A stretch of DNA of 64,000 nt. Origin: Candidatus Anaerobiospirillum pullistercoris. Lineage in GTDB: Bacteria; Pseudomonadota; Gammaproteobacteria; Enterobacterales; Succinivibrionaceae. Positions within the stretch are counted from its first letter, which is position 1; every line of letters starts with the position of its first letter. The notes below the pieces were generated by a model. It ran no database searches. It had not been told where the DNA came from and worked only from the letters and a program-made list of their open reading frames with translations. Positions 15,722 to 40,563 of the stretch are shown piece after piece. The position numbers and the translations under genes are program-made. Where the stretch lies: assembly GCA_019114785.1 (NCBI GenBank), contig DXEV01000168.1:2515-66514 (forward strand). Direction: 5' to 3'.

Positions 15722-15724
15722 GTC

Positions 15725-18407: not shown

Positions 18408-18409
18408 TT

Positions 18410-19009: not shown

Positions 19010-19018
19010 GGAGTCCGC

Positions 19019-20248: not shown

Positions 20249-20317
20249 TGCACACTGCAAGTAGTAGCCATCAGCGATGATGGCAAGGCCACAGCAGTGG
20301 TCACTACTTGATAAGAA

Positions 20318-20360
20318 AGAGGGTGAGCTCTCACAAGGGGCCCACCCTTTTTTGTTTTTG
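20318..20360 (+). terminator. Intrinsic terminator of the nqr operon
   Basis: AGGGTG (20320-20325) pairs with CACCCT (20343-20348). The loop contains the palindrome GTGAGCTCTCAC. TTTTTGTTTTTG follows. Confidence 0.7.
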
Positions 20361-20488
20361 TCTGCTGATGGCGAGAGCCTAGATGTTAAAATTAGTCGAC
20401 CCTAGGGGATGGATTGCCGCTATATTTCGGCTTTTTGCCCCTCCTTTCTTTTTGTCCTTTAGTCCTTGATGGTAGATGAGTCTTTCTC

Positions 20489-24472: not shown

Positions 24473-24565
24473 GTTTATACGGCATAAGTTTGTAGCTGAG
24501 CTGTTAAAGCTGTCGCTAGAGCTTAGGTTTGGGATAAGAGTTTTGGTAATTTTGCAGGAACACAG

Positions 24566-26605
24566 ATGGCTATGGAAGAACAAGCCCCAGACGTTGACGC
24601 AAAGGGAGCTCCTGATCAAGGTATAGACTCCAGTGGGCAGGAAAAGAGCGCTTATATTCATGAGGTTGCGCGCAAAGATAAGACGAGCCAAAAGATCAGT
24701 GTTTGGGCATTCTCGCTTATAGTTATCCTTTTCGCTTTTATCTTTGTCGGTTATGTGAGCTGGGTGCTGATAGTTAACTCAAGCCAAACAGATAAGATCC
24801 GTGAAGCCGTTGAGAATCATGCGGATTTGATTGCTTTGGTGACGCAGTCTAAGCAGGATATTGCCCATTTACGTAGTGACAAGCTGGAATTAGAACAAGA
24901 GGTATCTACTTTAACAGCTCAGCGCGACGATCTCGATATCAAGGTGAAAGAGCTTTTGGCCACCAAGCAAGAGATCGATAGCTACTATCAAGAGTATAAG
25001 CTGCGTAAGGACGCTCTGGAAAAGGAATATAGCCTACAAGAGGAAGGCTTAAAGCAGCTTAGTGATAAGCTCGTAGCTACGCAATCTGATGTGACCAAGG
25101 CTGAGGTGGAGCTGGCTGATCTACAAAGTAAGGTAGAGGCTAATCGCCAGTTGGAGCAGCAAAATCGTAAGTTACTCCAAGAGCAAGATAAGTTACAGCG
25201 ACAAAAGAGTCAGCTGGAAACTGAGATAGCTTCGCTGGAGACTACCGTGAAGCAGCATGAGGACACCCTGCGTGCGCTGGCTGCGCGTGAGCAAGAGGTG
25301 GGCTCCATTACTAATCAGCTCAAGGAATTAGTCGCAGGATACGGTGAGCAGGTGACGTCTTTGCTGGATAGCAGCACTAAGCTCAACTCTTTAGCCACAT
25401 CATTGGCGGCCCAAGAGCAAAGTGCCACGTCCTTTGTTAAGCAAGCCGATGCCATGACCAAGCAACTGGATACTATTGGCCAGACTTTAGGGCAGCATGG
25501 CTCCACCATCAATTCTGCTGCTACCAATATTAACGATGCCGTTGCTAAGACCTCTAATGCTATTCATGAGGCCGAGCAGGGACTCAATGCAACGTTTACC
25601 AAGGTTACAGAGTCGTTAGGTCAATCCGAGGAGAAGATGAATGCTGCATTGTCTAGTACATCTAATGCCTTAGAGAGTGCAGGGGATAGTGTGACTAAAG
25701 CAGTGACCCAAGCTACCCAAAGCTTGAGCAATGCTACGGAAAAGGCTGTGACTTCTGTGAACACTGCCGAGAAGAGTGTCACCAGTGCCATCACCAAGAC
25801 TACGACAGCTTTAGCCTCAGCTGAGAAGAGCATAACGGATGTTGCCTCTAATGCAGTGACCCAAGCTACCCAGAGCTTTAGCGCCGCTACGGAAAAGGCA
25901 GTGGCCTCTGTGAATACAGCCGAGAAGAGTGTCATCGATGCTTTCGCTAAGACTACGACTGCGCTGAATTCAGCTGAGCAGAACCTAACGGCGGCTGCCT
26001 CGCAGACCGCAACTGCTATGCAAAGCTTTAGCGCCACTACGGAAAAGGCAGTGACCTCAGTGAACACTGCCGAGAAGAGTGTCACCGATGCCTTCGCTAA
26101 GACTACGACAGCTTTAGCTTCAGCAGAGAAGAACATAACTGATGTTGCCTCTACTGCTGTGACCCAAGCTACCCAGAGCTTTAGCGCCGCTACGGAAAAG
26201 GCAGTAGCCTCTGTGAATACGGCCGAGAAGAGTGTCACCGATACCTTCACCAAGACCACGACTGCGCTGAATTTAGCTGAGCAGAACCTGACGGCTGCAG
26301 CCTCACAGACAGCAATTGCTATGAGTCAAGCCCAAGAAAACGTAAGTTTAGCTTTGACTCAGTCTGTGTCAAATCTCAATGAGCAAGTACAACAGCTTAG
26401 AGCCTCTTTAATGCAGGTTCAGGGCGACTTACAGCAATTTATCCAAGGTCTAGAAACTCAGCAGGCTGGTGCTAATGAGGCTGTGTCATCGCAGTTGTCT
26501 CAGCTGCAAACTCAGCTACAGGAGCTACAGCAGAGCCTTGAGCAGGTGAGCCGTCAGGCCGTGCAGGTGGACGAGGCTACTGTAGCCGTTCCAGAAGCAA
26601 ATTAA
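24566..26605 (+). CDS. Membrane-anchored coiled-coil protein with tandem 50-51-aa repeats
   Basis: One predicted TM ('ISVWAFSLIVILFAFIFVGYVSWVLIV') lies near the N-terminus. About 200 aa of heptad-like K/E/Q/L-rich sequence follow. Then come 4-5 tandem Ala/Thr/Ser-rich repeats ('ATEKAV(T/A)SVNTAEKSV.DAF.KTTTAL.SAE'), then a Q/L-rich tail. AGGAA lies 7 nt upstream of the ATG. I recognise no enzymatic motif. Confidence 0.75.
   Translation: MAMEEQAPDVDAKGAPDQGIDSSGQEKSAYIHEVARKDKTSQKISVWAFSLIVILFAFIFVGYVSWVLIVNSSQTDKIREAVENHADLIALVTQSKQDIAHLRSDKLELEQEVSTLTAQRDDLDIKVKELLATKQEIDSYYQEYKLRKDALEKEYSLQEEGLKQLSDKLVATQSDVTKAEVELADLQSKVEANRQLEQQNRKLLQEQDKLQRQKSQLETEIASLETTVKQHEDTLRALAAREQEVGSITNQLKELVAGYGEQVTSLLDSSTKLNSLATSLAAQEQSATSFVKQADAMTKQLDTIGQTLGQHGSTINSAATNINDAVAKTSNAIHEAEQGLNATFTKVTESLGQSEEKMNAALSSTSNALESAGDSVTKAVTQATQSLSNATEKAVTSVNTAEKSVTSAITKTTTALASAEKSITDVASNAVTQATQSFSAATEKAVASVNTAEKSVIDAFAKTTTALNSAEQNLTAAASQTATAMQSFSATTEKAVTSVNTAEKSVTDAFAKTTTALASAEKNITDVASTAVTQATQSFSAATEKAVASVNTAEKSVTDTFTKTTTALNLAEQNLTAAASQTAIAMSQAQENVSLALTQSVSNLNEQVQQLRASLMQVQGDLQQFIQGLETQQAGANEAVSSQLSQLQTQLQELQQSLEQVSRQAVQVDEATVAVPEAN
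25690..26320. repeat. Tandem 150/153-bp coding repeats (303-bp super-repeat) inside the 24566-26605 gene
   Basis: The (A/T)TEK repeat anchor, keyed on its conserved ACGGAAAAGGC string, recurs with Thr codons at 25736, 25889, 26039 and 26192 (spacings 153, 150, 153 bp). Flanking sequence is near-identical. Confidence 0.85.
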
Positions 26606-26711: not shown

Positions 26712-29700
26712 TTAGCTTTCGTCTTTTCCTTCCTCATCTAGGCCTTGCAGCTCAGACATAATGTTAGGGTTACTACCCTCTTTGCGCAGGTACTTCTTAA
26801 CCTCTGGTAAGAGAATATTAAGTTTTTCCTCGACAAAAGAGTGGAACCGCTCTGTAAAGACATAAGATATACGTCTTCCTTTGTTGTAGGGCTCTCGCTG
26901 CTGAATTTGCTGATCGAGTCGTTGGTATGTGCTCAGTGTGTCGTCTAGCAGTTGTTCTATCTCAACAATCTCTGCTTCGTCGATGAAGTTTAGTTCTTCC
27001 TTACGGTAAAGCAGAGAGTACAGCATTACTCTAAGCGACAAGCTGAGTGAACTGCTTCCGATCACTGATTGAGCTTTTATGATTTTTTCACCTAGCTCTG
27101 GGTTATGCACTGTAGCTCGGATTTTATCTTTACTGCTGTCGAGGAGAGCGCGTGCAAACTCAGCCCCCATGCTGAAGTCTTTGGATGACGGGGAAAAGAC
27201 CTGAGGGTGATTTTCGATCAGTAGCAAGGCACCATTCATGTGCCTAGTCTTAAGCGGTGCCATTTGAAGCAGCCATTGACAGCACTTGTTAACCGCTTCC
27301 TTAGAATCAGGCACGAACATACAGTAGCGATGCATTAGCTTGCTCTTGTCTAGAAAATTAGTGCCTATCCTAAAGGCCTGCTCCACGGCTAGAGCTACTG
27401 TATTTGCGATTCCTTCAAGATCAGGGTTGCCAAAAGGCTTAGCTTGAGGGAATGGTAGACATTGGTCGATGTTATCGCAGAATGCTTTAAAGTCACCTTT
27501 TCTGATGTTGGCAAGCAAGAGGGCATGATACATTCTATGGTCTTGCAATAGACGAGCATGGATCTTCTGCTTCATTGTTTGGGAGCCGAATTCACCATTG
27601 TAATACACCAGATCTTGCTGTTTGCGCCCGCCACGGAAAATGATATCCTCTTGCGTTAACTTCTGTTGCCTACGTTGGATTGTAGTAGCTAATTGACCGC
27701 GTGGTTTTAATAATGGTGGGTAGACGCGAGGTAGCTGTGGCAGCTTCTCCGTAAAATCGACTTTTTTGCTTGGATCAAACACTTGCACCTCGCCATGTTG
27801 AGGTAACACACTGCTGACTTCACTGGCGTCAGGATCTGGCTTAATGTGGATTTTGGCGTAGCCAGATAAGGCGCGTTGTTCCACCCAAACTATAACTGGC
27901 TCATCATTATGTGCTTTGCGGCCGGAGGCAAAGGTCAAGGTAGCCTTTTGTACTGATACTGGTGGACTTTGTAAGGTAAAAGGTGTTTCTGTGGCAAGAT
28001 TGATACTATCGTCGTTAAAAGCAGTATCGGTGGAAACGTAGAGCTCAACGTGATCGCTGCCTTTGTTAATAGCTAGTCCTACCTTAGAGCCGGTGATATT
28101 TTGTGTTGGTGCGATGGTGTCATCGTTAATCAGAACCTGCTCTTTGTACTCGGTGTGCTCCTTATTACTGATAACCATTGACAGCTTGGTTAAGCGATCA
28201 AGGTAGGTAGGATGTGTCTGGGGGGCATTGAGGTTGAGGCGTTCTTGGAATAGGAATCCACCTAAAGCCATGTGTTGCCACGCGGTGTTGTGGCGCGATA
28301 ATCTCAATGGTAGAGGATGGGCCTGCATGCTTGCAAGCGAGTCAATGGTTTGGGAATTGCCATAGAGCATTGGGCCAGTAATTAATAGGCACTCGTGTGG
28401 CTCGCTATAGTCTAGATCGTCGAGCTTGTGATCAATCATCACCTTGCGGATCCACTCAGTCATACCCATATAGGCGTCATATGGTATAAATTGCTCAGTA
28501 TCACATCCGTATAACTCATAGAATGATTGAATAGCTAATGAACGAGAGCGCACTTGGGCTCGTTGTTTATCTGTCAATAGCGTATGAATGTGGCACCATT
28601 TATCGATGCTGTGTTTTTGCGGTTGAGGTACACGTAAGACGCGTAAGTGTTCGCTGGTGTCAGATTGTCCCCATGCCTCTGGGAATTGATAGATCACTTG
28701 CGCTATGACCGCATTCTGTAGTTGCTTAAGGATCTGAACGTCGTTCTGCCTTTGAGCAGAAGATAAGCTCTCTATGAGCTTCGTGCTTAAAAACGTGTAA
28801 GCATAGCTGATAGCGTATTGCAAGAAACTGGTACCAATGGCGCAATTCTTATAGACCGATTCACGGCGAATAGGGATGACATAGCTCTGATCAGTGTGTA
28901 GCTTTAGATCATAAGTGGATAGATCGATACTGTCAGGGCCAATGTAGAGCACATGCACGGTAGCAGTATCTTTGTCCTCAGGGGTGTTGCCTTGTGATTC
29001 TTGGGGATGGCTGCTTACATGCTCCACTAGACGCAGCTCTGATTGCGAGCCTGAGTTACTGCTATCTAAACCAGCACGCATAGCCTCAATTTTTGCTCGT
29101 ATTGATTCAGGTGTTTGCTTAGAGTCTTCAGCCTCAAGTTGTTTGTCAAAATCAGCAAAGATATCATTGTTTTGGCTTAGATGCTCGTAAAAGCTAGTAG
29201 CTTCTTGGGATGTGGCCACCTTGGCGCGAGACTCTTCGGCCATATTGGCAATAGATAGGTGAGAGGCAGGCTTAGCTGTACCCATAATAGTGGCAAAGCT
29301 AGGTTCTGGAACAATGTCCTGATCCGAGTAAGCATTGAAGTGGCCGAGCAAGGTAGCAATGGAGCGCCAAAGTAATTGCACCTCAAAGCCAGAGAATGCG
29401 TTGATTAAGGCTTGCTGCTCTGCCTCATCGAAATTATCAGGAATGCAGATGACAAGTTGGCAGTGAGACTGTAGATAAGCCTTATTGGTACGTGTGATTT
29501 TGGCAGGGAGTCTATCCATAGCCTCTGTATCGTTTACAGGGGCGGGCGCTGTATTTGCGGTAGCACGTTTGTGCTCGTCAAAGGTATCGCAGGCTAGCTG
29601 GATGATGTACTTGGCAAGCGAGTTAGCAGCATGTTGCTTATTTTCATCTCGTGGTTGTAGGTGCTTGAGCTGTTGCCAGAGTAAGGCTACTGGGATTCGG

Positions 29701-29897
29701 CTGCTATAGTGGTCATTGTCGATAAGGCCAATACCAGTGCGCTCATACAGTGCATCTTGGCCATACATGTAGAGCTTATTTTCACGGTCTTCAATGACCA
29801 CCGAAGGTAAGTTGCTGTCCTGCATATATACCTTGCCATCAATGACAATGGTGTCAGCAAAGCCGAAAGCACTGATGCTGATAATAGACTTGGCCAT
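26712..29897 (-). CDS. Hsp70/actin-fold protein (NBD plus SBD-beta-like region) with degenerate nucleotide-binding motifs and ~330-aa helical C-terminal domain
   Basis: By-eye alignment to the Hsp70 motifs follows.
- 'IISISAFGFADTIVIDG...NLPSVVIEDRENKLYMYGQDA' corresponds to phosphate-1 plus 'TPSVVAF..G..A'.
- 'LVICIPDNFDEAEQQALINAFSGFEVQLLWRSIATLLGH' corresponds to 'VITVPAYFND.QRQATKDAG.IAGL.V.RIINEPTAAALAY'.
- 'VLYIGPDSIDLSTYDL' corresponds to 'V.DLGGGTFDVSIL'.
- 'LLITGPMLYGN' corresponds to 'ILVGG.TR.P'.
- 'MALGGFLFQERL' corresponds to 'AVA.GAA.QA..L'.
The start is coupled to the upstream gene: a 3-nt gap, with AGGAG 8 nt upstream of the ATG. Confidence 0.6.
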   Translation of the reverse strand: MAKSIISISAFGFADTIVIDGKVYMQDSNLPSVVIEDRENKLYMYGQDALYERTGIGLIDNDHYSSRIPVALLWQQLKHLQPRDENKQHAANSLAKYIIQLACDTFDEHKRATANTAPAPVNDTEAMDRLPAKITRTNKAYLQSHCQLVICIPDNFDEAEQQALINAFSGFEVQLLWRSIATLLGHFNAYSDQDIVPEPSFATIMGTAKPASHLSIANMAEESRAKVATSQEATSFYEHLSQNNDIFADFDKQLEAEDSKQTPESIRAKIEAMRAGLDSSNSGSQSELRLVEHVSSHPQESQGNTPEDKDTATVHVLYIGPDSIDLSTYDLKLHTDQSYVIPIRRESVYKNCAIGTSFLQYAISYAYTFLSTKLIESLSSAQRQNDVQILKQLQNAVIAQVIYQFPEAWGQSDTSEHLRVLRVPQPQKHSIDKWCHIHTLLTDKQRAQVRSRSLAIQSFYELYGCDTEQFIPYDAYMGMTEWIRKVMIDHKLDDLDYSEPHECLLITGPMLYGNSQTIDSLASMQAHPLPLRLSRHNTAWQHMALGGFLFQERLNLNAPQTHPTYLDRLTKLSMVISNKEHTEYKEQVLINDDTIAPTQNITGSKVGLAINKGSDHVELYVSTDTAFNDDSINLATETPFTLQSPPVSVQKATLTFASGRKAHNDEPVIVWVEQRALSGYAKIHIKPDPDASEVSSVLPQHGEVQVFDPSKKVDFTEKLPQLPRVYPPLLKPRGQLATTIQRRQQKLTQEDIIFRGGRKQQDLVYYNGEFGSQTMKQKIHARLLQDHRMYHALLLANIRKGDFKAFCDNIDQCLPFPQAKPFGNPDLEGIANTVALAVEQAFRIGTNFLDKSKLMHRYCMFVPDSKEAVNKCCQWLLQMAPLKTRHMNGALLLIENHPQVFSPSSKDFSMGAEFARALLDSSKDKIRATVHNPELGEKIIKAQSVIGSSSLSLSLRVMLYSLLYRKEELNFIDEAEIVEIEQLLDDTLSTYQRLDQQIQQREPYNKGRRISYVFTERFHSFVEEKLNILLPEVKKYLRKEGSNPNIMSELQGLDEEGKDES

Positions 29898-29900
29898 GTT

Positions 29901-31961
29901 TTAGCTCTCCTGAGTTGTGATGTCGTGGATGATGGAAGAGATCATTACCTCCATGGACTCTAAGCACTGTAACCACTCATCAGGACTGACAGTGATAGTA
30001 CTCATGAAGCATGAAGGGCAGACTTTATTGCGGGTGAGATTGCGGTTATTGGTGCCCGCAATGACTTTGATACCTATGTTGTTGTTGTATTTCCCCGCAT
30101 TATAGGTTTGCTTGTCTGCTTGAGAGAGGGACTGAGGTTTGGTGGTGCAAATGGTGTTAATCTTGTATGTTGGTGCGTTGGCTCTATACGTGACCATGTT
30201 AGCCTCACGCTGCACACTGAAGTTTTTTAGCTCCTTTAAGTCCCAGAACTGCTCAGTACTGACTAAGAAGCAAGGATATATAGGGATGGCAGGGGAACTA
30301 GATGCTCTATTTTCGAGCAGATCTTTAAACATAGCAGGAAGCTTGAGAAGTAAGCTATCACGCTCAGATTCGTCACGTAAAGCACAGTGCATAGAATACA
30401 GTGGAACTAAGACGTGTTGTACGGGCTCCCTTAGATCTTGGATGGAAGAGACCTTGGTGAATAACAAGAAAGATGGGGCCGTTGGCATGAGTTGCAATGT
30501 CACTTGTGGCCATAATTGGGTAATAGTGTTAGGAAGCCCCATGGAGTTGAGCTTTTCTGAGCCGAAAGTGATCACTTCTACAGTGTAAACGGAGCTAGGG
30601 CTTTGAATTAAAAAAGGCCCAGCTTCGCAACCTAACTTGATACGGTGGCCGTTGATCTGCTCGCGGCTAATATGTACGTAGGACTTGCCGATGGTATTGA
30701 TCTGATACCCGTACTGTAAGGGCCATTGAGAGCTATCGGCTAGATCACAGAGTGCTGCATTGATGAGTAGATCGCAGATGTCCTGAAATAGGTTCTGTTG
30801 GCAGTAGATAGTCTTATCCAGATCTCGTTTCTCGTGGATGAGATCGAGGTACATTTGCCAGATCTTTTTGTAGTCAGGATCTTTTTGCAGCACAAAGTTT
30901 GGCTTAGGCAGCGATGGCTGACGAGGCACAGCGGCCAAGGGCGATTTCTGAGAGAGCTCTTGGCAGCGCTGCTTGAAGATATTCATCTGATGAGTGATAG
31001 AGGAGTTAGCCAAAGCGCGGTTGCGGTTGCTCTTATCCTTGATCTCAAGGATGTATTGGGTAGATTTAGTGATACAGCGCTCTAAGAAATCCTTAAGCAC
31101 ACGGTTTTCTAGTAGATTGTAGGTTTCTTCTTTAGCCAGACCTAAGAAACGCATTTTGTTCTTTTGGGCCTTTTCTCGCAGAGTATCGCCTTCGAGGCGC
31201 AATAAGTACTCAAGGCACTTACCGTCCATTGCGTTGATGCGCTCTACAGGCAACAGCTTGCGGGTGTTGATTAGGCTTTTGCGTAGCTTGGCAGCAATAC
31301 GGCTTAGTGGATCTGAGGCCTTTTCGGCGATAGCAAGAATACGTGATCTTGAGATTTGCTCGTCATTACCACAGTACTGACAGATCAGTCGATTAAGATC
31401 GGCAAAGCGCACCATCTGTACATCGGAAAAGTCGCTTGTTTGGTTGTAGTTGATGAGATAGTCAAAAAATGCGAGCCAGCGTTCGAGGTACTGAAAGTAA
31501 TGTGCCTCGGAATTATGGTCATTTTTGTCAGAGCTAACCAGCACAAAGTCGATATTTCCTATGTTTTGCCCATTATAGTGGATAGACAAAGGTAAGGTGA
31601 CTGCCGTTGTGGTTGGTGTGGAAGGCTCTGCCGTAAGCAGAGTTTGCTGAATGCTCTTTTGCAGCTTATAAGGTAAGCTACTGACGGAGATTAAAGATGG
31701 TAGCGTGTAGATGCCAATATTGAGAGCTTCTCCGGCATAGGCGTAGATAAAAGCTTTTTTCTTGAACTGGTAACTTTGGCCATCGCGCTCATAGCAGAGG
31801 GTTAGGGGTAATTCACTGCTATAGCTCTGCTCCCGAGTAGAGATGGGTAATATTAAGTAGGCACAAGTCACTGCACCATGAGTACTTGGGACAATGACTT
31901 TTTTGTCAGTGTCTCGATCGACTTTTAGTAGAGGAAAATCACTGAGAAAACCTGCTGTCAT
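29901..31961 (-). CDS. McrC/DUF2357-like partner protein (nuclease core not recognisable by eye)
   Basis: 'EETYNLLENRVLKDFLERC' matches the conserved (D/E)T.ENRfLK helix of McrC/DUF2357 proteins. 'PNFVLQKDPDYKKIWQMYLDLI' and 'NLFQDICDLLINAAL' resemble the segment that precedes the PD-(D/E)xK core in that family. It lies immediately downstream of the McrB-like gene. Confidence 0.55.
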   Translation of the reverse strand: MTAGFLSDFPLLKVDRDTDKKVIVPSTHGAVTCAYLILPISTREQSYSSELPLTLCYERDGQSYQFKKKAFIYAYAGEALNIGIYTLPSLISVSSLPYKLQKSIQQTLLTAEPSTPTTTAVTLPLSIHYNGQNIGNIDFVLVSSDKNDHNSEAHYFQYLERWLAFFDYLINYNQTSDFSDVQMVRFADLNRLICQYCGNDEQISRSRILAIAEKASDPLSRIAAKLRKSLINTRKLLPVERINAMDGKCLEYLLRLEGDTLREKAQKNKMRFLGLAKEETYNLLENRVLKDFLERCITKSTQYILEIKDKSNRNRALANSSITHQMNIFKQRCQELSQKSPLAAVPRQPSLPKPNFVLQKDPDYKKIWQMYLDLIHEKRDLDKTIYCQQNLFQDICDLLINAALCDLADSSQWPLQYGYQINTIGKSYVHISREQINGHRIKLGCEAGPFLIQSPSSVYTVEVITFGSEKLNSMGLPNTITQLWPQVTLQLMPTAPSFLLFTKVSSIQDLREPVQHVLVPLYSMHCALRDESERDSLLLKLPAMFKDLLENRASSSPAIPIYPCFLVSTEQFWDLKELKNFSVQREANMVTYRANAPTYKINTICTTKPQSLSQADKQTYNAGKYNNNIGIKVIAGTNNRNLTRNKVCPSCFMSTITVSPDEWLQCLESMEVMISSIIHDITTQES

Positions 31962-32054: not shown

Positions 32055-35012
32055 TTAAGCTTGATCAATGGAGCGGCTGACGCCTCGCCATAAGAACATG
32101 CCGTTAGTTTCGTAGTTATCTTTGGCAATCTTAAAGGCTTTGATCAATTCTTCATCATGGGTGTCTCTAATCTCGTTGTCAATAGAGCTCAGACAGGTAT
32201 CGGATTTTTCGTTCTGCTCCAAACCAGCCAGTTTTGGAATGATTTTCATCTCGATTTGATCTGCCAGTGCTATCAAAGCGCTTTCTTCAGGATTAGCTGA
32301 GCTCTTAATGTCAGGGTACATTTGGATGTAATGGGTAATGGAATTGTTGACACGATAGCCAAAGGCTTTGCCCACACTATCCAAGGCGTTATTTAACGTG
32401 TTGATCTTTGAGCGCAGAGCTTCAGGGAAGTTATTTGGGAAGTTTTCTTGGCTACACCAGTCGTTGAAAGTATCGGCATTGACATAGATCTGTGACACTT
32501 TATCGTAGCGGATGTTATCCTCAAAGCTTTTTGGCTTACCGAAGTGCAGCACGTTGGCACGATCTAGCACTTTGTCGGATAGTGAGTATGTCGACTCATC
32601 GTCGTTCATGGTGCCGACAAATACAACATTGGAGCCAACGAAGAAGTCACGGCTATTAAGTTGGGTACCGATAGAGATCTTGCTCTTATCCTCAGGCTGA
32701 TTACGGTCAGTGCCGCGCAATTCCAGTTTTGAGAGGAACTCCGAGAAGTAGTACTCTACGCGGGCAAGGTTCATCTCATCGAGTATCACCATCATCATTG
32801 GAGAGTCGCTGTTGTTGCGGATCTGGTGGAAATAATACAAGGCCTTTACCAGTTCTGTTGGCTGATAGCGCTTCTCGAGGAAGTTATAGAAGCCAAGTAG
32901 GTCGTCCTTAGAGTCCCAACGTGGTTGTACGGCTACGTGCTCGCTGTAGAAATTGAAGAACTTAGCGTACTGCAGTGCCAGTTGGGTTTTACCTGTACCA
33001 CTTAAGCCTGCTAACACAGAGATCGGGTTAATGTTCTGCACCTTAAGTGACGTGTGGAATGCCTTAAGAGTACGAGGGGAATAGAAGAACCCTTCACCCT
33101 TTAAGTAGTCTTGGAATAGCTCTAAAGCGGTACCTTCGTCTTTTACCTCTGTGCCATCGAAGCGCTTTAAAAAATTCTCGATAGCAGCCGGTGTTTGCTC
33201 TAACTCCTCATAGGCAGTATTACTTGCTTCGACGGTGTGGGCACTCTTGGCTTTTTCCTCCAGAGCGGCTACTTCTTGCTGAAGCTGAGTTTTTTGTGCC
33301 GTGAGTTGGCTCTGAGTCGCCAGCTCCGAGGCTAGGTTTTGCATGGATTGCGATAAGGTGTCTTTGAGGTCGTCAAAGGCTTGCCCCAAGGTCTCGCTTA
33401 GCAGATTAGTACTTTGCTGTTCATTGACTTGCGATTGCAGGTCGTCAAGCTCATCCTGCTTTTTGGAGATCTGTCGTTTGAGGTTATCCAACTTGTTATT
33501 GAGCACTCTTTGTTGGTCATTGAGCTCATTCTGTCCGCTGATGCTAAAGATAGCATTGGACAGAGCCTCACTGATCTGTGAGGAGCTGCGCTGTTCATCG
33601 ACTTGAGATTGTAGGTCATCAAGTTCATCTTGCTTTTTGGAGATCTGGCGCTTGAGGTCATCTAACTTGTTATTGAGCACTCTTTGTTGGTCATTGAGCT
33701 CATTCTGTCCGTTGATGCTGGAGATAGCATTAGACAGAGCCTCACTGATCTGCGAAGAGCTGCGCTGTTCATCTAATTGAGCTTTTAGATCGTTAAGTTC
33801 TTTTTGTAGTGCTTTGGCGGCGCTGGCTTGATCGCTCTTAGCTTTTTCCAGAGCAAATACTTCTTGTTTGAGCTGATTTTTTTGCGCCGTAAGCAGGCTT
33901 TGCTCCCCTAGCTCCGAGGCTAGGTTTTGCATGGATTGCGACAGGGTGTCTTTAAGGTCATCGAAGGTTTGACCCAAGGTTTCGCTCAGCAGATTGTTGC
34001 TTTGCTGCTCATTGACTTGAGATTGCAAGTCGTCAAGTTCTTTTTGCTTGGCTGCTACATTATTTTTTAGCTCATTAAGCTGAGAAGTCAGCTTTCTGAA
34101 GTCGTTGGTATCCGACAGCTGCTCAAAAGCAGTGTTTAAGGCGTCTGAGAGCTGATTTTGATTGCTCTTATTGCTGATTTCTTCCTTAAGCTCGCTTAGC
34201 TTCTCTTCTTTTTCCTGTACTTGCTGGGACAGTTGTTCTAGCTTGGAGCTAAGCTCTTGTTCTTGCTGAGCACGGATCGCTTGCTCATTAAAGGAGGTGA
34301 AAGCCTTATTGATGGCGTCGTTGAGCTTACCTGTGTTGAGCTCTTTTTCCTGCTCTATCAGTCGAGCGGCGTTAACATCGTACTGCTTGCGCAGATCCTC
34401 AATCTCTTGTTGCAGTTTTTGGCTTTCAGACTTTAAATTCGAGTTGTCTGCGAGCTCAGAGAACATCTGGTTAAGAGAGTCCTTGGCTATACCACTGCTG
34501 AGCTTCTCGTTGACTTGATCAGAGAGCTCCTTGAGACGCTCTTCCTTGTCATTGATCTTTTGATCGAGCGCGTCTAGCTGTTCTTGCTGGTGGTTATTGA
34601 TAAAGTCCTTTAAGGCTTCACTTTTAGAGAGCTCACGGTCGAGATCCTGCAATTGCTGGAGCTTACCTTGGTACTCGCTGCCTAAGGCATTGAGCTGACC
34701 TTTTACCTGATCAATAGTCTCCTTATTGGCGGCAAATTGCTCATACTCACTTTTGATGCGGGCGGTCTGCTTTTCCACATCTTCCTTGAGACTTTGCTTT
34801 TCCTTTAGCTCAATTTCGAGATTTTGGACTTTTTTGAGCAGATCTTCATGATCGCCTTTAAGTTGTAGTCTGTAATCAAAGTGGGCGTTGATTCGGAAGT
34901 AGAAAAAGGCAAGAATAATGGAAAGGATAACGATAGCAACCGCACCTATTGCAAGGAAAAAGGAAGTGAGGTTGGTGGAAAGTATTGCGGACAAATCAGG
35001 TAAGTCAGACAT
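32055..35012 (-). CDS. McrB-family AAA+ GTPase/ATPase with N-terminal transmembrane anchor and ~600-aa coiled coil
   Basis: The TM segment is 'LTSFFLAIGAVAIVILSIILAFFYF' (aa 15-39). Heptad-rich K/E/Q/L sequence runs to about aa 600. The Walker A is 'LAGLSGTGKTQLALQYAKF' (nt 32985-33008, aa 669). 'QPRWDSKDDLLGFYN', 'MMVILDEMNLARVEYYFSEFLSKLE' and 'VFVGTMNDDESTYSLSDKVLDRANVLHF' form the McrB/AAA_5 signature set. Confidence 0.85.
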   Translation of the reverse strand: MSDLPDLSAILSTNLTSFFLAIGAVAIVILSIILAFFYFRINAHFDYRLQLKGDHEDLLKKVQNLEIELKEKQSLKEDVEKQTARIKSEYEQFAANKETIDQVKGQLNALGSEYQGKLQQLQDLDRELSKSEALKDFINNHQQEQLDALDQKINDKEERLKELSDQVNEKLSSGIAKDSLNQMFSELADNSNLKSESQKLQQEIEDLRKQYDVNAARLIEQEKELNTGKLNDAINKAFTSFNEQAIRAQQEQELSSKLEQLSQQVQEKEEKLSELKEEISNKSNQNQLSDALNTAFEQLSDTNDFRKLTSQLNELKNNVAAKQKELDDLQSQVNEQQSNNLLSETLGQTFDDLKDTLSQSMQNLASELGEQSLLTAQKNQLKQEVFALEKAKSDQASAAKALQKELNDLKAQLDEQRSSSQISEALSNAISSINGQNELNDQQRVLNNKLDDLKRQISKKQDELDDLQSQVDEQRSSSQISEALSNAIFSISGQNELNDQQRVLNNKLDNLKRQISKKQDELDDLQSQVNEQQSTNLLSETLGQAFDDLKDTLSQSMQNLASELATQSQLTAQKTQLQQEVAALEEKAKSAHTVEASNTAYEELEQTPAAIENFLKRFDGTEVKDEGTALELFQDYLKGEGFFYSPRTLKAFHTSLKVQNINPISVLAGLSGTGKTQLALQYAKFFNFYSEHVAVQPRWDSKDDLLGFYNFLEKRYQPTELVKALYYFHQIRNNSDSPMMMVILDEMNLARVEYYFSEFLSKLELRGTDRNQPEDKSKISIGTQLNSRDFFVGSNVVFVGTMNDDESTYSLSDKVLDRANVLHFGKPKSFEDNIRYDKVSQIYVNADTFNDWCSQENFPNNFPEALRSKINTLNNALDSVGKAFGYRVNNSITHYIQMYPDIKSSANPEESALIALADQIEMKIIPKLAGLEQNEKSDTCLSSIDNEIRDTHDEELIKAFKIAKDNYETNGMFLWRGVSRSIDQA
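33290..34025. repeat. Near-identical coding repeats in the coiled-coil region of the McrB-like gene
   Basis: A tandem 174-bp (58-aa) unit occurs twice; GAGCACTCTTTGTTGGTCATTGAGCTCATTCTGTCCG starts at 33501 and 33675. It is flanked by a ~130-bp dispersed repeat; GCTAGGTTTTGCATGGATTGCGA starts at 33331 and 33919, 588 bp apart. Confidence 0.85.
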
Positions 35013-35717
35013 AGCAGTGAGCGTAAGTTGGTTGTAAGCAGCAGCGCGCTGCTGGAGTGGTGTTGGTGTCGGTTAATGCCCGCCCGCTAAGGGTAGCAGG
35101 GCGGTAACAATATGGTAGCTGTTAAAAACTGGTATTGGACTTAAAGTGTGGATCCTTGTTGGAGTAGGTTTCAGGTAAGGACTTTGGATCGTACATGCAG
35201 GCTAAGCGGTGTGCTTTGCCAAGCTGCATTAAAGGGATTTCTAGTCGCTATTTTTCGCCCATTTTAATCCCAATAGAGGTGTTTGTAACTAGTGCTAAGA
35301 CACAGATGTGATAACGGCAAGCTTCAATATATGGGCTGTGTGTTCGGCAAGCGAGCGCTGGCGCGGAACAACATTGAGGTTTTGGCGGTGCCTGTTGGGT
35401 GGCGTGATTTTGGGCGGATGTTATGAGGTTGGGCAATGGTGCAGGGAGTAGTGACCGCGAGGGGCGAGCCTTGTGGTGGCTAGGGGCGGGCGCTTGGACT
35501 GTGTTTTTGGGGTGGGCGCTTGAGCCCAAGGGGCGGGCGCTGTGGCTGGCGCTGAGCCACGGCGGCAGCTTAATTCTTCAAAGCGTGACCTGTGCTCAAC
35601 TATTGCCCTCATTTTTTTGTTACGATAGCTGGTATGTAAGAGAGTCCTCTGGCCTGTGTCTCTTTGTCTTGCCTTGAGGCTACCTCTTGCTGGTTTTCCA
35701 CGTTGAGGAGCAATTTA

Positions 35718-36173
35718 ATGTTAGCTACTTCGCTTGAGCTCGCTACTAAATACGACTATTTAGCCGAAAAGTTCCAGAAGAGTATCGAGTGGTTAAAGAC
35801 CCACGATGCCACCAAGCTGGACAACGGCCGCTATGATATCTGCGACGGTGCCTTTGCCTTAGTCCAACGCTATGCCACCGTTCCTTTTGAGCAGATCCAG
35901 TTCGAGGCCCATAACGACTACTTCGATATCCAGTACTTAGCTCAAGGTATCGAGACCTTTAATGTGTGCTTACGTAAAGACTGCCAAGTCACTAAGGAAG
36001 ATGCTGCTTCTGATATGGTCTATCTGAGCACCCCTGAGGTCTACACCTCCGTGACTTTAAAGCCAGGTGAGTTTGCCATCGTTCCTCCTGAGGAGGGCCA
36101 CCAACCACGTATCGCTTATCAAGGCAAGAGCGTGGATGTGGTTAAGGTGGTAGTCAAAGTTGCTGTAGAATAG
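35718..36173 (+). CDS. nanQ: YhcH/YjgK/YiaL (DUF386) family protein, NanQ-like sialic-acid anomerase/accessory protein
   Basis: ATG at 35718 follows GAGGAG. It is a 151-aa cupin-like protein ('GRYDICDGAFALVQRY', 'HNDYFDIQYL', 'FAIVPPEEGHQP'). It sits next to the nan genes. Confidence 0.75.
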   Translation: MLATSLELATKYDYLAEKFQKSIEWLKTHDATKLDNGRYDICDGAFALVQRYATVPFEQIQFEAHNDYFDIQYLAQGIETFNVCLRKDCQVTKEDAASDMVYLSTPEVYTSVTLKPGEFAIVPPEEGHQPRIAYQGKSVDVVKVVVKVAVE

Positions 36174-36299
36174 GCTAACCAGTTACTACCAGCTGGCTTT
36201 GCTTTCTGTCAGACGTGGAGGTCTGGAAGAAAGCCTATGCTTCTTTTGGTTTTGGGCCGAGTGAGGTCGGTCTGAAATCGTGTGGAAAAGAACAAAAAG

Positions 36300-36335
36300 A
36301 AAGGCGCAAACCCGCAAGGGCCTGCGCCTTTTTCG
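36300..36335 (+). terminator. Intrinsic terminator downstream of nanQ
   Basis: AGGCGCA (36302-36308) pairs with TGCGCCT (36323-36329), with an inner CCC-GCAA-GGG. TTTTT follows. Confidence 0.75.
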
Positions 36336-36347
36336 CTTTAGTAGGAT

Positions 36348-36496
36348 CAGTGTTGAGGAAAACACCGATTATTAAGGAGGAGATCGATATTTGAGGATAA
36401 TATCGACCTAAGCCCTTTTAGGCGGCTTAGTTTCCTATCAGTCCGTCTTGAGGAATTAGACGAACAGACTGTTAGCTGCGAGGAAAACAGCTAAGC
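36348..36496 (+). ncRNA. Candidate CsrB/Rsm-type sponge RNA: four hairpins with GAGGA loops
   Basis: Four hairpins are present: 36350-36365 (loop GAGGAA), 36384-36406 (loop TGAGGAT), 36439-36471 (loop TGAGGAATT) and 36472-36494 (loop CGAGGAAAA). The stems differ in sequence while the loops are conserved. No promoter or 3' terminator was identified. Confidence 0.3.
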
Positions 36497-37036
36497 AATT
36501 CGGTCGTGATGGCTACAATATTCTAAAACCTGTAGAGGGTACTCTTCAGGGGCTTTCTAGGCTCAGTATACGCCCTATTTGCCTTATATATCGGCTTTAG
36601 CCTGATTAACTGAGATTTCTCCGCAAAAAGATCTCAGCCTATGGCCATTAATCCCGATTTTTAGCACTTTGTGTGCCGGTGCACACTTGTCTGACAATGT
36701 CTTATCTTTTGCAGTTTGATACACTGCTTTAGCGTGTTATTTATCAGATTCTAGCACTAACTTGTATGGCCTAAATTCATTATAGCTTAACCTGTAAGGA
36801 CTGGCGTAAACGCTTAAGTCGTAAGCGTTATCGGCGCTTAGAAAGGCAGGCATAGTTTGGTGGGCTTTGGCTTTGCCTTGGCTTTGGTGGCTCTGGGCAG
36901 TTTATACGCGGCAAATAGCCCCAGAGAGGCTGGGGCTTGCGATTATGTAGGGATTTAGTCTGTTTTGGGGCGCTTGTGAGCGCGTGGCGCGCTGAGCTCA
37001 GAGCGCAGTGCTGAGCTGCGCTGCACGGCGCTGGGG

Positions 37037-37951
37037 TTAGAGGCCGCGACGTTGCTTGAAGTGGTAGAAACCACCAAGCATTCCGGCATCATTGCGCAGC
37101 TGAGCAAATTCGATACGCGTGGCCTTAAAGACGATATCGCGCAGCTTGCTCTTTAATGCTGCCTCAAGGCGTGGACGTAGATAGGCATCACGGGCCATAA
37201 TGCCGCCACCTAAGATCACTGCCTGTGGGTTTTGCACTGAGACCACATTGGTAATACCGTCGCTTAAGTGCTCTACAAGGTCATCAATGGCAGCGATAGC
37301 GGTGGCATCTCCACTCTCGGCTTCATCAAAGATACGCTTGCCGTTAACCTCTTTTAAGCCCTCACCAGTGATGCCTTTGAGAGCAGCGTAGTATTTCACC
37401 AGATGGGTGGTAGAGGCCAGCTCGTGCAGCATGCCGCTAGGTACACGCATATAGGCGATTTCGCCTGCGCTGTTGGAAGCACCGCTTACCAGTTTACCGT
37501 CACAGACCATGGCTCCACCGATAGAGGTGCCAATGGTCATGCAAAAGACATCATGGCAGCCTTTACCTGCACCTAACCAAGTCTCACCTAAAGCAGCGCA
37601 GTTCACATCGTTTTCGACCTCACATGGCAGGTTAAAGTCGTGGGAGATGAGCTCCTTAAAGTTCACGCCAGTGTAGTCAGGGATAGCATCTGGCAGCGCG
37701 TAGACGATCTTGCCTTGCTCGGGGTCGACCATACCAGCAGTGGAGATACTCACACCTTTGATTTGTGAGCCATATTTAGACAGAGCGTTGGAGCAGATCT
37801 TTTTGACCTTTTGCACAATGCCTGGGCCGCCAAACTCTTGGGCTTCAGTTGGCAGTTCTGCCCGCTCTCGTAAGTTACCGTCTAAGGTAGCGATACCGTG
37901 TTTGATAGCGGTGCCGCCGATATCAATTAAGACATACAGGTCATTGTGCAT
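37037..37951 (-). CDS. nanK: ROK-family sugar kinase, probable N-acetylmannosamine kinase (lacks the ROK Cys zinc motif)
   Basis: The start at 37951 gives 'MHNDLYVLIDIGGTAIKHG' (ATP-binding DxGGT). 'VENDVNCAALGE' and 'GTSIGGAMV' are present. No CxCGxxGC motif follows 'SGASNSAGEIAYM'. It is the last gene of the minus-strand nan cluster. Confidence 0.7.
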   Translation of the reverse strand: MHNDLYVLIDIGGTAIKHGIATLDGNLRERAELPTEAQEFGGPGIVQKVKKICSNALSKYGSQIKGVSISTAGMVDPEQGKIVYALPDAIPDYTGVNFKELISHDFNLPCEVENDVNCAALGETWLGAGKGCHDVFCMTIGTSIGGAMVCDGKLVSGASNSAGEIAYMRVPSGMLHELASTTHLVKYYAALKGITGEGLKEVNGKRIFDEAESGDATAIAAIDDLVEHLSDGITNVVSVQNPQAVILGGGIMARDAYLRPRLEAALKSKLRDIVFKATRIEFAQLRNDAGMLGGFYHFKQRRGL

Positions 37952-37990
37952 CGAAAAATTCCTCTTCTCAGCTGCCTCCAAGTGGTTTTA

Positions 37991-38060
37991 GCCATGCTTG
38001 AGCCATGGTTTTGGCCATGGCTTGAGCCATGGCTATGGCTTTAGCTAAGCTTGAGCCACT
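37991..38060. repeat. Tandem ~23-bp repeats built on GCCATGG(C)TTGAGCCATGG
   Basis: GCCATGCTTGAGCCATGGTTTTG / GCCATGGCTTGAGCCATGGCTATG, plus a partial third copy, lie 40-110 bp upstream of the nanK start. Confidence 0.6.
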
Positions 38061-38320
38061 GTCGAGGCAATGTCTGCTGGGCAAATCTGTAATGGGGTTG
38101 TTGCACAGACGGACGTGAAGTCCGGTGAGCTTGGCCAAACAAGTTTACAGCGTGGGCCGGATTCTTTTGGCCTTTGGGCCGGAGGCCAGCGCACGTTGTA
38201 AGCTTGCTTCGCTATAAATTAAAAAAGCAGGGACTAGCCCTGCTTTCATTGTAGGTCATTGATTTGTGGAGCCAATGCTGGCGCTGGAGGCTTACAGGAG
38301 GCCTGCATTGGCGGGGATTA

Positions 38321-39850
38321 TTACTGCTCGCGGCAGGTTGAGTAGGTCGAGCCCTTTGGAGCCACGAACTCTTTGCCAGTCACAGCAGCTTGAATACGCG
38401 ATACGATCTCGCCAACAATTAAGGTCACGATGATAGCGATTAAAGCATACATCCAGAAGCTGATGCTTGGCACGTTGTACTTGCAGAAGAACACGGTTGC
38501 GGTTGCTGCTACGAAGCCAACGATAGCACCTAAAGCAGAGGTCTTGTTGGTGAAAGCACCTAACACGAACACACCAGCTAATGCACCTAAGGCCTGACCT
38601 AAGAAGGAGTTGAATAACTCGTATGCAGACTTCACATCTAAGCGAGCTAAGTACATGGCCACTAAGATAGCGAAGATACCGATAGCCAGAGAGATGTACT
38701 GGGCGATCTTGGTCTGACGCTCGTAGCTCATGTTTGGAGTGATCTTGACCTGAATGTCCATCACCCAAGAGGTAGCAACCGAGTTAATACCAGTCGACAG
38801 AGTGGACTGAGAAGCAGCGTACAGAGCGGCTAAGATGATACCGGTGATACCAACTGGTAACTCATAGGTGATGAAGTAAGCGAACACCTGATCCTGAGAG
38901 TCACGGAACATTGGGGTGATGAGGTCAGGATTCTGTTGGTAGTACAGGTATAAGGCGGTACCGACTAAGTAGAACACCGAAGCGCAGAACAGGGATAAGA
39001 TACCATTACCGATGGTCATCTTATTTAACTGCTTCATATCGGTAGTAGTGGTGAAACGTTGCACCACGTCTTGCGAGGAAACGTAGGAGCAGAAGGTAGT
39101 TAAACCACCACCAACTAAGGTAACGATCACCGAGGTGCCTAACAGGTTGGTCCAATCCATCCACTTCTCGTTGTCAGCTAAGAAACGGCCACCCACAGTT
39201 AAGGAGTTGGTCACATCGCTTAAGCCGCCATCTAACTTGTAGATCATGTAGAAGAGGGTTAAGGTGATACCACCGATTAAGATCACACCCTGAATGAAGT
39301 CTGTCCAGAGCACAGCCTTTAAGCCGCCGGTGTAGGAGTACACGATAGCGATAGCACCCATAGCGATGATGAGCACATCCACGCTGATACCAGTTAAGTT
39401 AGCCAAAGCGACACATGGCAGATACATCACGATAGACATACGGCCTAACTGGAAGAGCACGAACATCAAAGCACCTAACACACGTAAGGCTGGGCTTTGG
39501 AAGCGGATCTCTAAGTAGTGGTAAGCAGTATCAATGTCTAAGCGGGAGTACACTGGCAGGAAGTAACGGATGGTCAAAGGAATGGCGATGATCATACCGA
39601 GCTGTGCGAACCACAGCATCCAAGTGCCGCCGTAAGAGTTACCGGCTAAGGCTAAGAATGAAATTGGGGAAAGTAAGGTAGCGAAAATGGAAACGCAAGT
39701 AACCCACCAAGGAACCGAGCCGTCGCCCTTGAAGAATTCCTTGCCTTTCATCTCTTTCTTGGAGAAGTAGATACCAGCTACCAGCACGCCTATCATATAG
39801 ACGACTAACACGGTGGTATCAATCCAAGTAAAACCGCGTAGTTCTTCCAT
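38321..39850 (-). CDS. Sodium:solute symporter (SSS) family transporter, SiaT-like sialic acid transporter by context
   Basis: 509 aa from ATG 39850 ('MEELRGFTWIDTTVLVVYM'), polytopic with about 13 TMs. The SSS pattern 'GGLKAVLWTDFIQG' is present. It lies between nanA and nanK. Confidence 0.8.
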   Translation of the reverse strand: MEELRGFTWIDTTVLVVYMIGVLVAGIYFSKKEMKGKEFFKGDGSVPWWVTCVSIFATLLSPISFLALAGNSYGGTWMLWFAQLGMIIAIPLTIRYFLPVYSRLDIDTAYHYLEIRFQSPALRVLGALMFVLFQLGRMSIVMYLPCVALANLTGISVDVLIIAMGAIAIVYSYTGGLKAVLWTDFIQGVILIGGITLTLFYMIYKLDGGLSDVTNSLTVGGRFLADNEKWMDWTNLLGTSVIVTLVGGGLTTFCSYVSSQDVVQRFTTTTDMKQLNKMTIGNGILSLFCASVFYLVGTALYLYYQQNPDLITPMFRDSQDQVFAYFITYELPVGITGIILAALYAASQSTLSTGINSVATSWVMDIQVKITPNMSYERQTKIAQYISLAIGIFAILVAMYLARLDVKSAYELFNSFLGQALGALAGVFVLGAFTNKTSALGAIVGFVAATATVFFCKYNVPSISFWMYALIAIIVTLIVGEIVSRIQAAVTGKEFVAPKGSTYSTCREQ

Positions 39851-40563
39851 AGCAAAAAACCTCAATACTTCGTGGCTACGTCCAGCTGTAGTGCTTGTCG
39901 CGTTTTCTTTGCTAGTACTTAGCTCCCAATATCTGCTACCAAACGTGCAGAGTAGTTATTGGGCTGAAGTTGTTCTTGGGTAAGATTGTTGGTTGTCATT
40001 AAACCGAGGTTTAAGCCCCAAACCTCAGTAATTATGTTGGAAAAAGCTTATGCGCTGACGTCACAAGTGGAGGAATGCTGTGACTCTCATACTGCCATGA
40101 CCAACGCTTACATAGCCGCAGGCTATAGCCGTAGACTATGGTAAGAGCCGCTGGCGCTGGCAGTAGCGCATAAGGTTGCAGACAAAAGTGCTGAGACAAT
40201 GCCAATTTAAGCAGCTGCTTATGTGTGGAGGAATAGAAGAGCGCTTAAACTCACTATGCTCCGGCACTTTGATTCGCACTTTAATTTTGTTTTCCCTACC
40301 CCAGCGTTACTCTGTTGTTTAGCAGTACTTAATCTGCTGTGCGGCAGCAGCTTAGGTTTTGGTGAGGGAGTAGGGTGCGACCCTTAGGCACCTAAGGGGG
40401 TACTTGTGTGGAAAGTACCCCCTTCAAGTTAGCTAAAGGTCTTGCTGTCACTGCTAGGTGCAGAAAATTTGAGTCTGTGAGGTAACTTTTGTTTTTCTGC
40501 ACTGTCTGGGATCTGCAGTGGCCTTATGACGTGGTGAGGCACGTCTTAAGATTGATGTGTGCC

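Follow-up and report, generated by a model that had tools for sequence, protein, structure and literature searches.

The window analysed here is a 64,000-nucleotide stretch of DNA from a metagenome-assembled genome of a chicken-gut Anaerobiospirillum (Succinivibrionaceae). It carries a 14.5-kb block of five genes organised in two operons: cnuH and cnuA (20489-26605, forward strand) converge on cnuB, cnuC and cnuD (35012-26712, reverse strand). The gene at the centre of this work, cnuB (32055-35012, reverse strand), encodes a protein with a predicted transmembrane (TM) helix, a segmented coiled-coil stalk and an McrB-like NxD GTPase domain, as described from its open reading frame (ORF) and translation, Pfam, PADLOC, hhalign and AlphaFold2 (AF2). 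CnuB is very probably the McrB-like GTPase subunit of a five-gene Type III-B CoCoNuT (coiled-coil nuclease tandem) system, and the locus is assigned to this type by gene content and motifs. CoCoNuTs were described from sequence by Bell, Sahakyan, Makarova, Wolf and Koonin (eLife 2024; PMC11090510). They constitute a large McrBC-derived family that exists only as a prediction.

The cnuB ORF is intact from its ATG to its stop codon and encodes 985 aa. Its start is backed by the N-terminal sequence MSDL[PI]DLS, which is conserved in 57 close homologs. An identical protein at NCBI, from Candidatus Anaerobiospirillum pullistercoris, is labelled 'AAA family ATPase'. The AAA+/GTPase domain occupies aa 641-985 (32058-33092, reverse strand), based on invariant alignment columns, a pLDDT (predicted local distance difference test score) of 70-92 in the AF2 model, Foldseek and hhalign. 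The preliminary description, a note made on the same DNA from the letters and their translations, had listed a full McrB/AAA_5 motif set in the C-terminus, and all of the motifs quoted there are present. They comprise the Walker A motif GLSGTGKT (aa 669-676, G669 to T676, at 32985-33008), QPRWDSKDDLLGFYN (aa 696-710), the Walker B residues D745 and E746 within ILDEMNLARVEYYFSEFLS (aa 743-761), GTMNDDEST (aa 800-808) and LSDKVLDRANVLHF (aa 811-824). The motif residues are invariant or near-invariant in alignments of relatives at 38-84% identity, with both N803 and D805 invariant, and Pfam AAA_5 matches aa 666-818 with an E-value of 7e-8. The McrB signature itself needs a refinement: it points to the McrB family as proposed, in the form of the NxD variant and not of the canonical one. 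The sensor-1 motif (N803-D804-D805-E806, at 32595-32606) is shortened, reading MNDDE versus MNTAD in E. coli McrB, and the canonical NxxD GTPase signature is not found in CnuB. According to the published description, the NxD variant, which is usually followed by E or D, defines the McrB branch that contains the CoCoNuTs (PMC11090510).

Membership of the McrB family was assessed with a CnuB family profile trimmed to exclude the stalk. Compared with E. coli McrB in hhalign, this profile gave a probability of 94.7% (E = 6e-8, 165 columns) in an alignment that covers Walker A, Walker B and the MN..D motif, while the control comparison with the related AAA+ protein RavA of E. coli gave 15.6% and aligned the P-loop only. 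McrB entries were among the top matches of the trimmed profile to PDB sequences, with marginal E-values (0.01-0.05), and a single-sequence phmmer search of the GTPase domain against PDB sequences returned nothing at E ≤ 0.01. The PADLOC candidate CnuB-like model PDC-M26A matches CnuB with an E-value of 6.5e-45; no paper on PDC-M26 was found in the literature. Together with the DUF2357 McrC homolog encoded immediately downstream, the contrast between McrB and RavA bears out the earlier identification of an McrB-family motor. As judged from its motifs and profile, the AAA+ domain of CnuB is McrB-like and of the NxD type.

The N-terminus of CnuB carries the predicted TM helix (aa 17-39, SFFLAIGAVAIVILSIILAFFYF; 34896-34964, reverse strand). 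The maximum of the Kyte-Doolittle hydropathy in a 19-residue window (KD19) reaches 2.98 here, the usual threshold for a TM segment being 1.6. The helix is preceded by an acidic flank (MSDLPDLS...) and followed by a basic one (R40, R48 and K52). AF2 confidence is below 50 for aa 1-21. The single N-terminal hydrophobic helix that had been placed at aa 15-39 is therefore recovered with nearly the same borders. An N-terminal TM helix is predicted in all 57 close CnuB homologs. Among more distant relatives, for which counts refer to the best 150 of 8234 cluster representatives, an N-terminal segment with a KD19 of at least 2.0 is present in 120, and the exceptions are mostly short fragments. Position and hydrophobicity of the helix are conserved among these distant representatives, its sequence is not. 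In related genomic loci across many phyla, an N-terminal TM-like segment was found in 56 of 70 full-length CnuB proteins and in 85 of the 602 other ORFs, CnuA included (Fisher p = 8e-30); none was found in CnuC (0/70), CnuD (0/71) or CnuH (0/47).

Lysine and arginine are more common on the C-terminal than on the N-terminal flank of the helix in 46 of the 57 CnuB proteins, and an N-out/C-in topology is therefore predicted. CnuB would thus be a single-pass membrane protein with a short N-terminus facing outward and with its stalk and NxD GTPase in the cytoplasm, the side that a nucleoside triphosphatase requires. Hydropathy and charge bias hence agree with the earlier suggestion of membrane tethering, in that they predict a conserved helix and place the GTPase in the cytoplasm. 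Because the anchor is common to Type III-B-like loci of other phyla, it is probably a subtype property and not specific to this locus. The CnuB of the Type III-C locus of Synechocystis also has an N-terminal hydrophobic helix (KD19 2.39), and in two Type III-A-like CnuB proteins that were examined such a segment is lacking, KD19 peaking at -0.24 and 0.39 within the first 100 aa. The membrane anchor is thus probably a property of the III-B/III-C branch as a whole. The main text and supplementary tables of the published survey annotate no TM segment for III-B or III-C (PMC11090510). Compared with that account, the conserved predicted TM anchors on CnuB and CnuA and the variability of stalk length between strains appear to be additions.

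The stalk follows the helix and extends from aa 40 to about aa 640 (33093-34895, reverse strand). L makes up 14% of it, Q 13%, E 11%, S 10% and K 9%, and there is one proline. In most 56-aa windows between aa 57 and aa 588, the power at a period of 3.5 residues is above that of shuffled sequences, with z reaching 6.7; no window of the AAA+ domain shows such an excess. AF2 models aa 16-604 as helix, interrupted at recurring linkers, with the low confidence in the stalk that is to be expected when a coiled coil is modelled as a monomer. The helix breaks coincide with a linker motif, [LI]S[DE][AT]L.x[AT][FI], that recurs at aa 288, 342, 422, 480 and 538. Tandem Repeats Finder detected a recent tandem duplication with a unit of 174 nt (58 aa) in 2.2 copies with 89% matches (33416-33800, reverse strand). 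By pairwise local alignment, aa 403-450 and aa 461-508 are 85% identical and aa 306-393 and aa 502-590 are 76% identical; self-BLAST of CnuB and CnuA listed no repeats. The long heptad-like stalk with internal repeats of the preliminary description is therefore confirmed in its periodicity and its duplications, and corrected in its continuity: it is a segmented modular helical array, not one unbroken coiled coil. When the stalk is kept in the family profile, myosin rods and the arms of SMC and Rad50 are matched. Such a profile was rejected as a means of identifying CnuB, because the coiled coils of myosin and SMC crowded out other matches.

Neither Pfam nor AF2 revealed a globular reader domain in the N-terminal 600 aa of CnuB, which consist of the TM helix followed by helix only. 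The absence of a DNA-reader domain that had been noted earlier thus holds. The novelty that this absence had seemed to imply does not, as a coiled coil in place of the DNA reader is already the defining feature of the CoCoNuT clade (PMC11090510).

The helical region of CnuB amounts to approximately 560-600 aa. The stalk of the window protein (about 580 aa) compares with 185-420 aa in relatives from other genomes; 560 aa of fully extended helix would span about 83 nm, versus about 37 nm for the 250-aa stalks that are common in other phyla. Among the 57 close homologs, CnuB length ranges from 735 to 1130 aa. We compared lengths in eight assemblies of close Anaerobiospirillum relatives in which the system lies at one shared chromosomal site, between nqr and nan/ROK/SSF genes. 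The respective CnuB and CnuA lengths (in aa) are 735 and 487, 803 and 367, 820 and 571, 874 and 571, 879 and 571, 926 and 520, 932 and 571, and 985 and 679, the last pair being that of the window. In the same assemblies, CnuC is steady at 686-695 aa, apart from one split locus, and CnuH measures about 1250-1330 aa. The number of linker motifs climbs with CnuB length, and stalk length changes by gain or loss of modules of 55-80 aa. As stalk lengths differ by up to approximately 395 aa among close relatives, with the variation among the eight assemblies confirmed at the same site, a fixed or precise ruler, one of the roles proposed for the stalk in the preliminary description, is argued against. 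The variation is in keeping with a flexible tether or with an interaction surface that evolves quickly. CnuA and CnuB lengths are not correlated across 39 loci from many phyla (r = 0.18, p = 0.26); in the eight syntenic close strains, which are few and non-independent, Spearman rho is 0.72 (p = 0.04).

The gene immediately downstream of cnuB, cnuC (29901-31961, reverse strand), encodes an McrC homolog of 686 aa with a DUF2357 domain at aa 219-371 (Pfam, E = 1.5e-12), and cnuC adjoins cnuB in 76 of 81 related loci. The DUF2357 motifs are conserved in 64 aligned CnuC homologs, and no conserved D...(D/E)xK triad was found in the C-terminal half of these 64 sequences. In one close strain (locus L087, 12301-14359) CnuC is called as two ORFs of 136 and 552 aa, the others being about 690 aa long; this may reflect a frameshift, a pseudogene or an assembly error.

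The third gene of this operon, cnuD (26712-29897, reverse strand), encodes a protein of 1061 aa with Hsp70-like nucleotide-binding and substrate-binding domains (NBD and SBD) and a C-terminal helical-repeat domain, as judged from profile comparison with PDB sequences, AF2 and Foldseek. Pfam returned no match for CnuD. The top PDB matches of a profile of 31 CnuD family members all belong to the Hsp70 family. The AF2 model (pLDDT 72.6) was likewise matched by Foldseek to DnaK, Ssz1 or Hsp110 in all of the top 14 matches (E = 1e-7 to 1e-2), followed lower in the list by weaker matches of the ARM/HEAT/TPR type. Iterated hidden Markov model searches found CnuD homologs in 71 of 81 loci. The Hsp70-like NBD harbours a partly helical insert of about 100 aa (aa 208-308; 28974-29276, reverse strand) with a pLDDT below 50, and CnuD length varies from 985 to 1110 aa among close strains.

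On the opposite strand, cnuH (20489-24472, forward strand) encodes 1327 aa comprising a UPF1-like superfamily 1 helicase and a C-terminal Vsr/DUF559 nuclease domain. Pfam assigns AAA_12 (1.7e-25), AAA_11 (6.6e-22) and DUF559 (5.6e-5; aa 1228-1310), and nothing was matched in aa 1-400. The nuclease motif D1237...E-C-D-G..H is present, and 28 of 41 homologs have a matching motif; CnuH is the predicted effector of the system. A Gly/Ala-rich low-complexity tract (AGAGAGAGVGAGGVVGG) lies between its two RecA-like helicase halves (aa ~740-765; ~22700-22790, forward strand).

The fifth gene, cnuA (24566-26605, forward strand), encodes a second predicted single-pass membrane protein of 679 aa, in which translation, KD19 and repeat analysis reveal a TM helix (aa 44-70, 24695-24775; KD19 2.81), then a coiled coil and then tandem repeats. 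Its family matches are of the coiled-coil type only, and a gene for a TM segment plus coiled coil adjoins cnuB in 41 related loci. The repeats (25695-26323) form about four copies of a 153-nt (51-aa) unit rich in S, T and A (e.g. ATQSFSAATEKAVASVNTAEKSVTDAFAKTTTALASAEKNITDVAS). They differ from the charged coiled coil of the same protein and from CnuA of other species; CnuA measures 339-395 aa in sister Anaerobiospirillum species. The positive-inside rule is ambiguous for CnuA, with K/R more frequent before the helix in 16 loci, after it in 16 and tied in 9. The window protein has its more basic flank N-terminal to the helix, and its coiled coil and repeat region might lie outside the cytoplasm.

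This gene set corresponds to the published Type III-B. As described there, CnuB of this type is an NxD GTPase with a coiled coil as its sole N-terminal fusion and with no CSD or YTH domains, CnuC keeps the PD-(D/E)xK fold with an inactivated nuclease and has an Ig-like beta-sandwich N-terminus, and CnuD is a separate gene with Hsp70-like NBD and SBD and HEAT-like repeats (PMC11090510). CnuH is a UPF1-like helicase fused directly to a Vsr-like nuclease, with a Sul7s-like winged helix-turn-helix N-terminus; CnuA is a separate coiled-coil protein with no other domains; and TerY-P genes are absent (PMC11090510). The window shares the NxD GTPase with a coiled-coil N-terminus, the DUF2357 McrC homolog, in which an active nuclease is not evident, the separate Hsp70-like and HEAT-like CnuD, the helicase-Vsr fusion, the separate CnuA and the lack of TerY-P: the TerY-P triad (VWA, PP2C and kinase) was not found in the flanking genes scanned around the block. 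It differs in its gammaproteobacterial host (Succinivibrionaceae), III-B having been reported mainly in Alphaproteobacteria, and also in its convergent operons, its unusually long stalk and the predicted N-terminal TM helix of both CnuB and CnuA (PMC11090510). By its gene content, the window locus is an ordinary representative of Type III-B from a new host lineage, with an architecture that had already been catalogued. The earlier proposal that target recognition is delegated to partner proteins agrees with the published family model (PMC11090510), and the partners are present here.

Relatives were collected with a HMMER search using the GTPase domain only, which gave the 8234 cluster representatives at E ≤ 1e-3 and 959 at E ≤ 1e-30; GTMN[ED]DE is present in nearly all of the 150 best. 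Eighty loci were drawn from GTDB genomes of Succinivibrionaceae, Desulfobacterota, Planctomycetota, Verrucomicrobiota, Lentisphaerae, Rhodobacteraceae/Rhizobium, Cyanobacteria and Firmicutes. The same five components are held in two recurrent orders, H-A-B-C-D and A-B-C-D-H. Within the genus, the convergent arrangement of H-A and B-C-D occurs in the window and in eight close strains, and two other Anaerobiospirillum species have a collinear B-C-D-H-A order; in other phyla, either H-A comes before B-C-D or H comes after D. The nearest relatives have gene contexts of Type III-B or III-C, which lends indirect support to a place of CnuB within the III-B branch of the published GTPase tree.

Next in relatedness come cyanobacterial loci of the order B-C-small helicase-PLD-CnuD, which are Type III-C-like. 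A complete III-C locus lies on plasmid pSYSX of Synechocystis sp. PCC 6803 (11348-20500), including the CnuB with an N-terminal hydrophobic helix. The Type III-C systems of pSYSX and Microcystis resemble the window in a GTPase of about 40% identity, in the hydrophobic helix of CnuB and in having CnuC and CnuD. In contrast, they use a two-PLD protein as effector and encode a small helicase separately, in place of a helicase-Vsr fusion, and they have no CnuA. More distant is the Type III-A locus of Klebsiella IncF plasmids (e.g. pKP57-mcr10), with TerY-P genes and a CnuC-CnuD fusion. It shares with the window the NxD GTPase (GTMNQDE), the long N-terminal coiled coil, the UPF1-like CnuH and the Hsp70-like domains, and differs by the TerY-P triad, an HEPN-type CnuE, the fusion of CnuC to CnuD and a CnuB with no TM segment (KD19 -0.24). 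GTPase-domain matches occur in 160 Klebsiella plasmid records and also on plasmids of Rhizobium and Sinorhizobium. Genetically tractable bacteria are among the hosts of plasmids with relatives of this domain. The Klebsiella III-A CnuB is annotated as 'chromosome partitioning protein ParA'.

Several points weigh against the assignment to a membrane-anchored Type III-B CoCoNuT defence system. A Foldseek search with the full-length CnuB model ranked MCM, dynein and RavA at the top, with no McrB among the 50 matches listed. This model-based result supports an assignment to the AAA+ clade only, and the McrB assignment therefore relies on comparing profiles, on the signature motif and on the presence of an McrC partner. 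The TM helix of CnuB is a prediction from hydropathy and charge bias. A single fixed site at which no integrase, transposase or other mobile-element families were found among the neighbours scanned in the eight related assemblies is less typical of a mobile defence island. Finally, no experimental work on any CoCoNuT type was found in the literature, and we infer the defence function, RNA targeting and GTPase activity of the window system.

Canonical McrB proteins read modified DNA with their N-terminal domain, and E. coli McrBC provides the template for an alternative in which the system is a DNA-targeting Type IV restriction system. The stalk would then replace the reader, and CnuC or the Vsr-like nuclease would cut modified phage DNA, possibly where it enters at the membrane. 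The two systems share the AAA+ GTPase fold, Walker A and B, the aligned MN..D motif and the McrC-type N-terminal domain of the partner, and this McrB/McrC homology lends the alternative some weight, as does the fact that characterised nucleases of the Vsr/DUF559 family, such as E. coli Vsr, are DNA enzymes. However, E. coli McrB has NxxD, CnuB has NxD; McrB has a soluble N-terminal reader of 5-methylcytosine DNA, CnuB a predicted TM helix and a stalk in which, as elsewhere in the protein, Pfam and AF2 find no modified-base reader domain; and the active PD-(D/E)xK nuclease of McrC has no evident counterpart in CnuC, whose family has no conserved D...(D/E)xK triad. In the published description many CoCoNuTs may also target DNA, yet the UPF1-like and Hsp70-like accessories are argued to point to RNA (PMC11090510). 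We regard a restriction system of this kind as unlikely, although it is the best placed of the alternatives, and ssDNA or DNA may still be the substrate.

A second alternative concerns the helix alone: instead of being inserted in the membrane, it might form a hydrophobic oligomerisation core, for instance bundling six stalks, within a soluble complex like those of other CoCoNuTs. CnuB of Types II and III has been published as a coiled coil plus GTPase with no TM segment (PMC11090510), and the low AF2 confidence at aa 1-21 would also be compatible with such a role. A segment of 23 residues with a KD19 of about 3.0 is nevertheless far above the usual cutoff. Its hydrophobicity and position, and not its sequence, are conserved across phyla; its charge bias is consistent, with the K/R excess on the C-terminal flank in 46 of 57 proteins; and the partner CnuA has the same kind of helix. 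The two Type III-A-like CnuB proteins have no such segment. A soluble bundle appears improbable.

Equally improbable is that the five genes encode a non-immune, lineage-stable machine with a membrane-associated housekeeping role, such as RNA quality control or envelope-linked nucleic-acid processing. The shared chromosomal site in eight assemblies and the lack of integrase or transposase families among the scanned neighbours would suit this explanation. It is at odds with a patchy distribution across phyla that includes homologs on Sinorhizobium, Rhizobium, Synechocystis and Klebsiella plasmids, with the relation to PADLOC defence-candidate models (PDC-M26A and MkoA-like), with the rearrangement of gene order between species and with a repeat-driven length variation between strains that is typical of conflict systems.

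Membership of the sister group CoCoPALM, a cell-envelope or pilus-related NxD GTPase with an FtsB-like TM segment and coiled coil, is very improbable. This group is the only NxD McrB group described with a TM plus coiled-coil N-terminus (PMC11090510), a layout that the window CnuB superficially resembles, but its published association is with pilus assembly and SipA-like signal peptidases (PMC11090510). A signal-peptidase family was found neither in the window neighbours that were scanned nor in flanking genes sampled at five related loci, CnuB has no DivIC/FtsB Pfam match at E ≤ 0.01 and the neighbouring CnuH-Vsr, Hsp70-like CnuD and CnuA define Type III-B instead. The FtsB match of CoCoPALM is itself weak in the source paper (HHpred E = 1.2; PMC11090510).

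A TM segment with a long coiled coil is also known from other defence proteins. In ShdA of the Shield system this layout leads toward a cytoplasmic effector (PMC11090510), and ZorA of the Zorya system has a similar one; CnuA weakly matches ZorA models through its coiled coil only. There is no homology with either protein beyond coiled-coil composition, and the window proteins have no MotA/ExbB channel domain and no RmuC nuclease.

Within the Type III-B CoCoNuT system as assigned here, a working mechanism can be outlined. By analogy with McrBC, CnuB would assemble into a ring, with CnuC stimulating its GTPase. This motor or switch would be held at the inner membrane, on the cytoplasmic side, by the coiled-coil stalks, which may pair with CnuA and would also serve as an assembly scaffold. 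CnuD could serve as a substrate-binding or sensing adaptor, and RNA binding has been proposed for it (PMC11090510). The CnuH helicase-nuclease would then act as the effector that degrades RNA or single-stranded DNA of the invader, or those of the host in an abortive mode. Action of CnuB at the site of phage genome entry, as raised in the preliminary description, is a plausible conjecture.

A broader proposal can be put forward tentatively, and we consider it possible, though not probable: the III-B and III-C CoCoNuTs as a clade may be inner-membrane-anchored machines. In such machines CnuB and CnuA would form a scaffold that holds the GTPase, the Hsp70-like adaptor and the helicase-nuclease, so that nucleic acid is intercepted at the envelope, either as an entering phage genome or during membrane-associated transcription or translation. 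The stalks would be under diversifying length selection, for example for escape from phage inhibitors or for matching envelope-linked targets. If this holds, these systems would represent a branch of Type IV restriction with a spatial organisation, unlike Types I, II and III-A, which are soluble. Should the TM helices place III-B and III-C at the inner membrane, the soluble RNA-surveillance model would need revision for that branch.

The five-gene block is flanked on one side by nqrA-F, the Na+-NQR operon (14348-20248), and on the other by a sialic-acid-type sugar-utilisation cluster of DUF386, ROK and SSF genes together with NanE, DHDPS and KdgM (35664-39865). No Rfam families were found in the window, and a promoter and terminator scan of the five-gene island performed no better than on shuffled sequence. 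A terminator-like hairpin lies at 20335-20350, 3' of nqrF. About 8 kb upstream of the CoCoNuT block, with the nqr operon in between, another gene (10861-12612, forward strand) encodes a 583-aa protein with a 'Predicted AAA-ATPase' domain (PF09820) and a C-terminal PD-(D/E)XK nuclease domain (PDDEXK_9).

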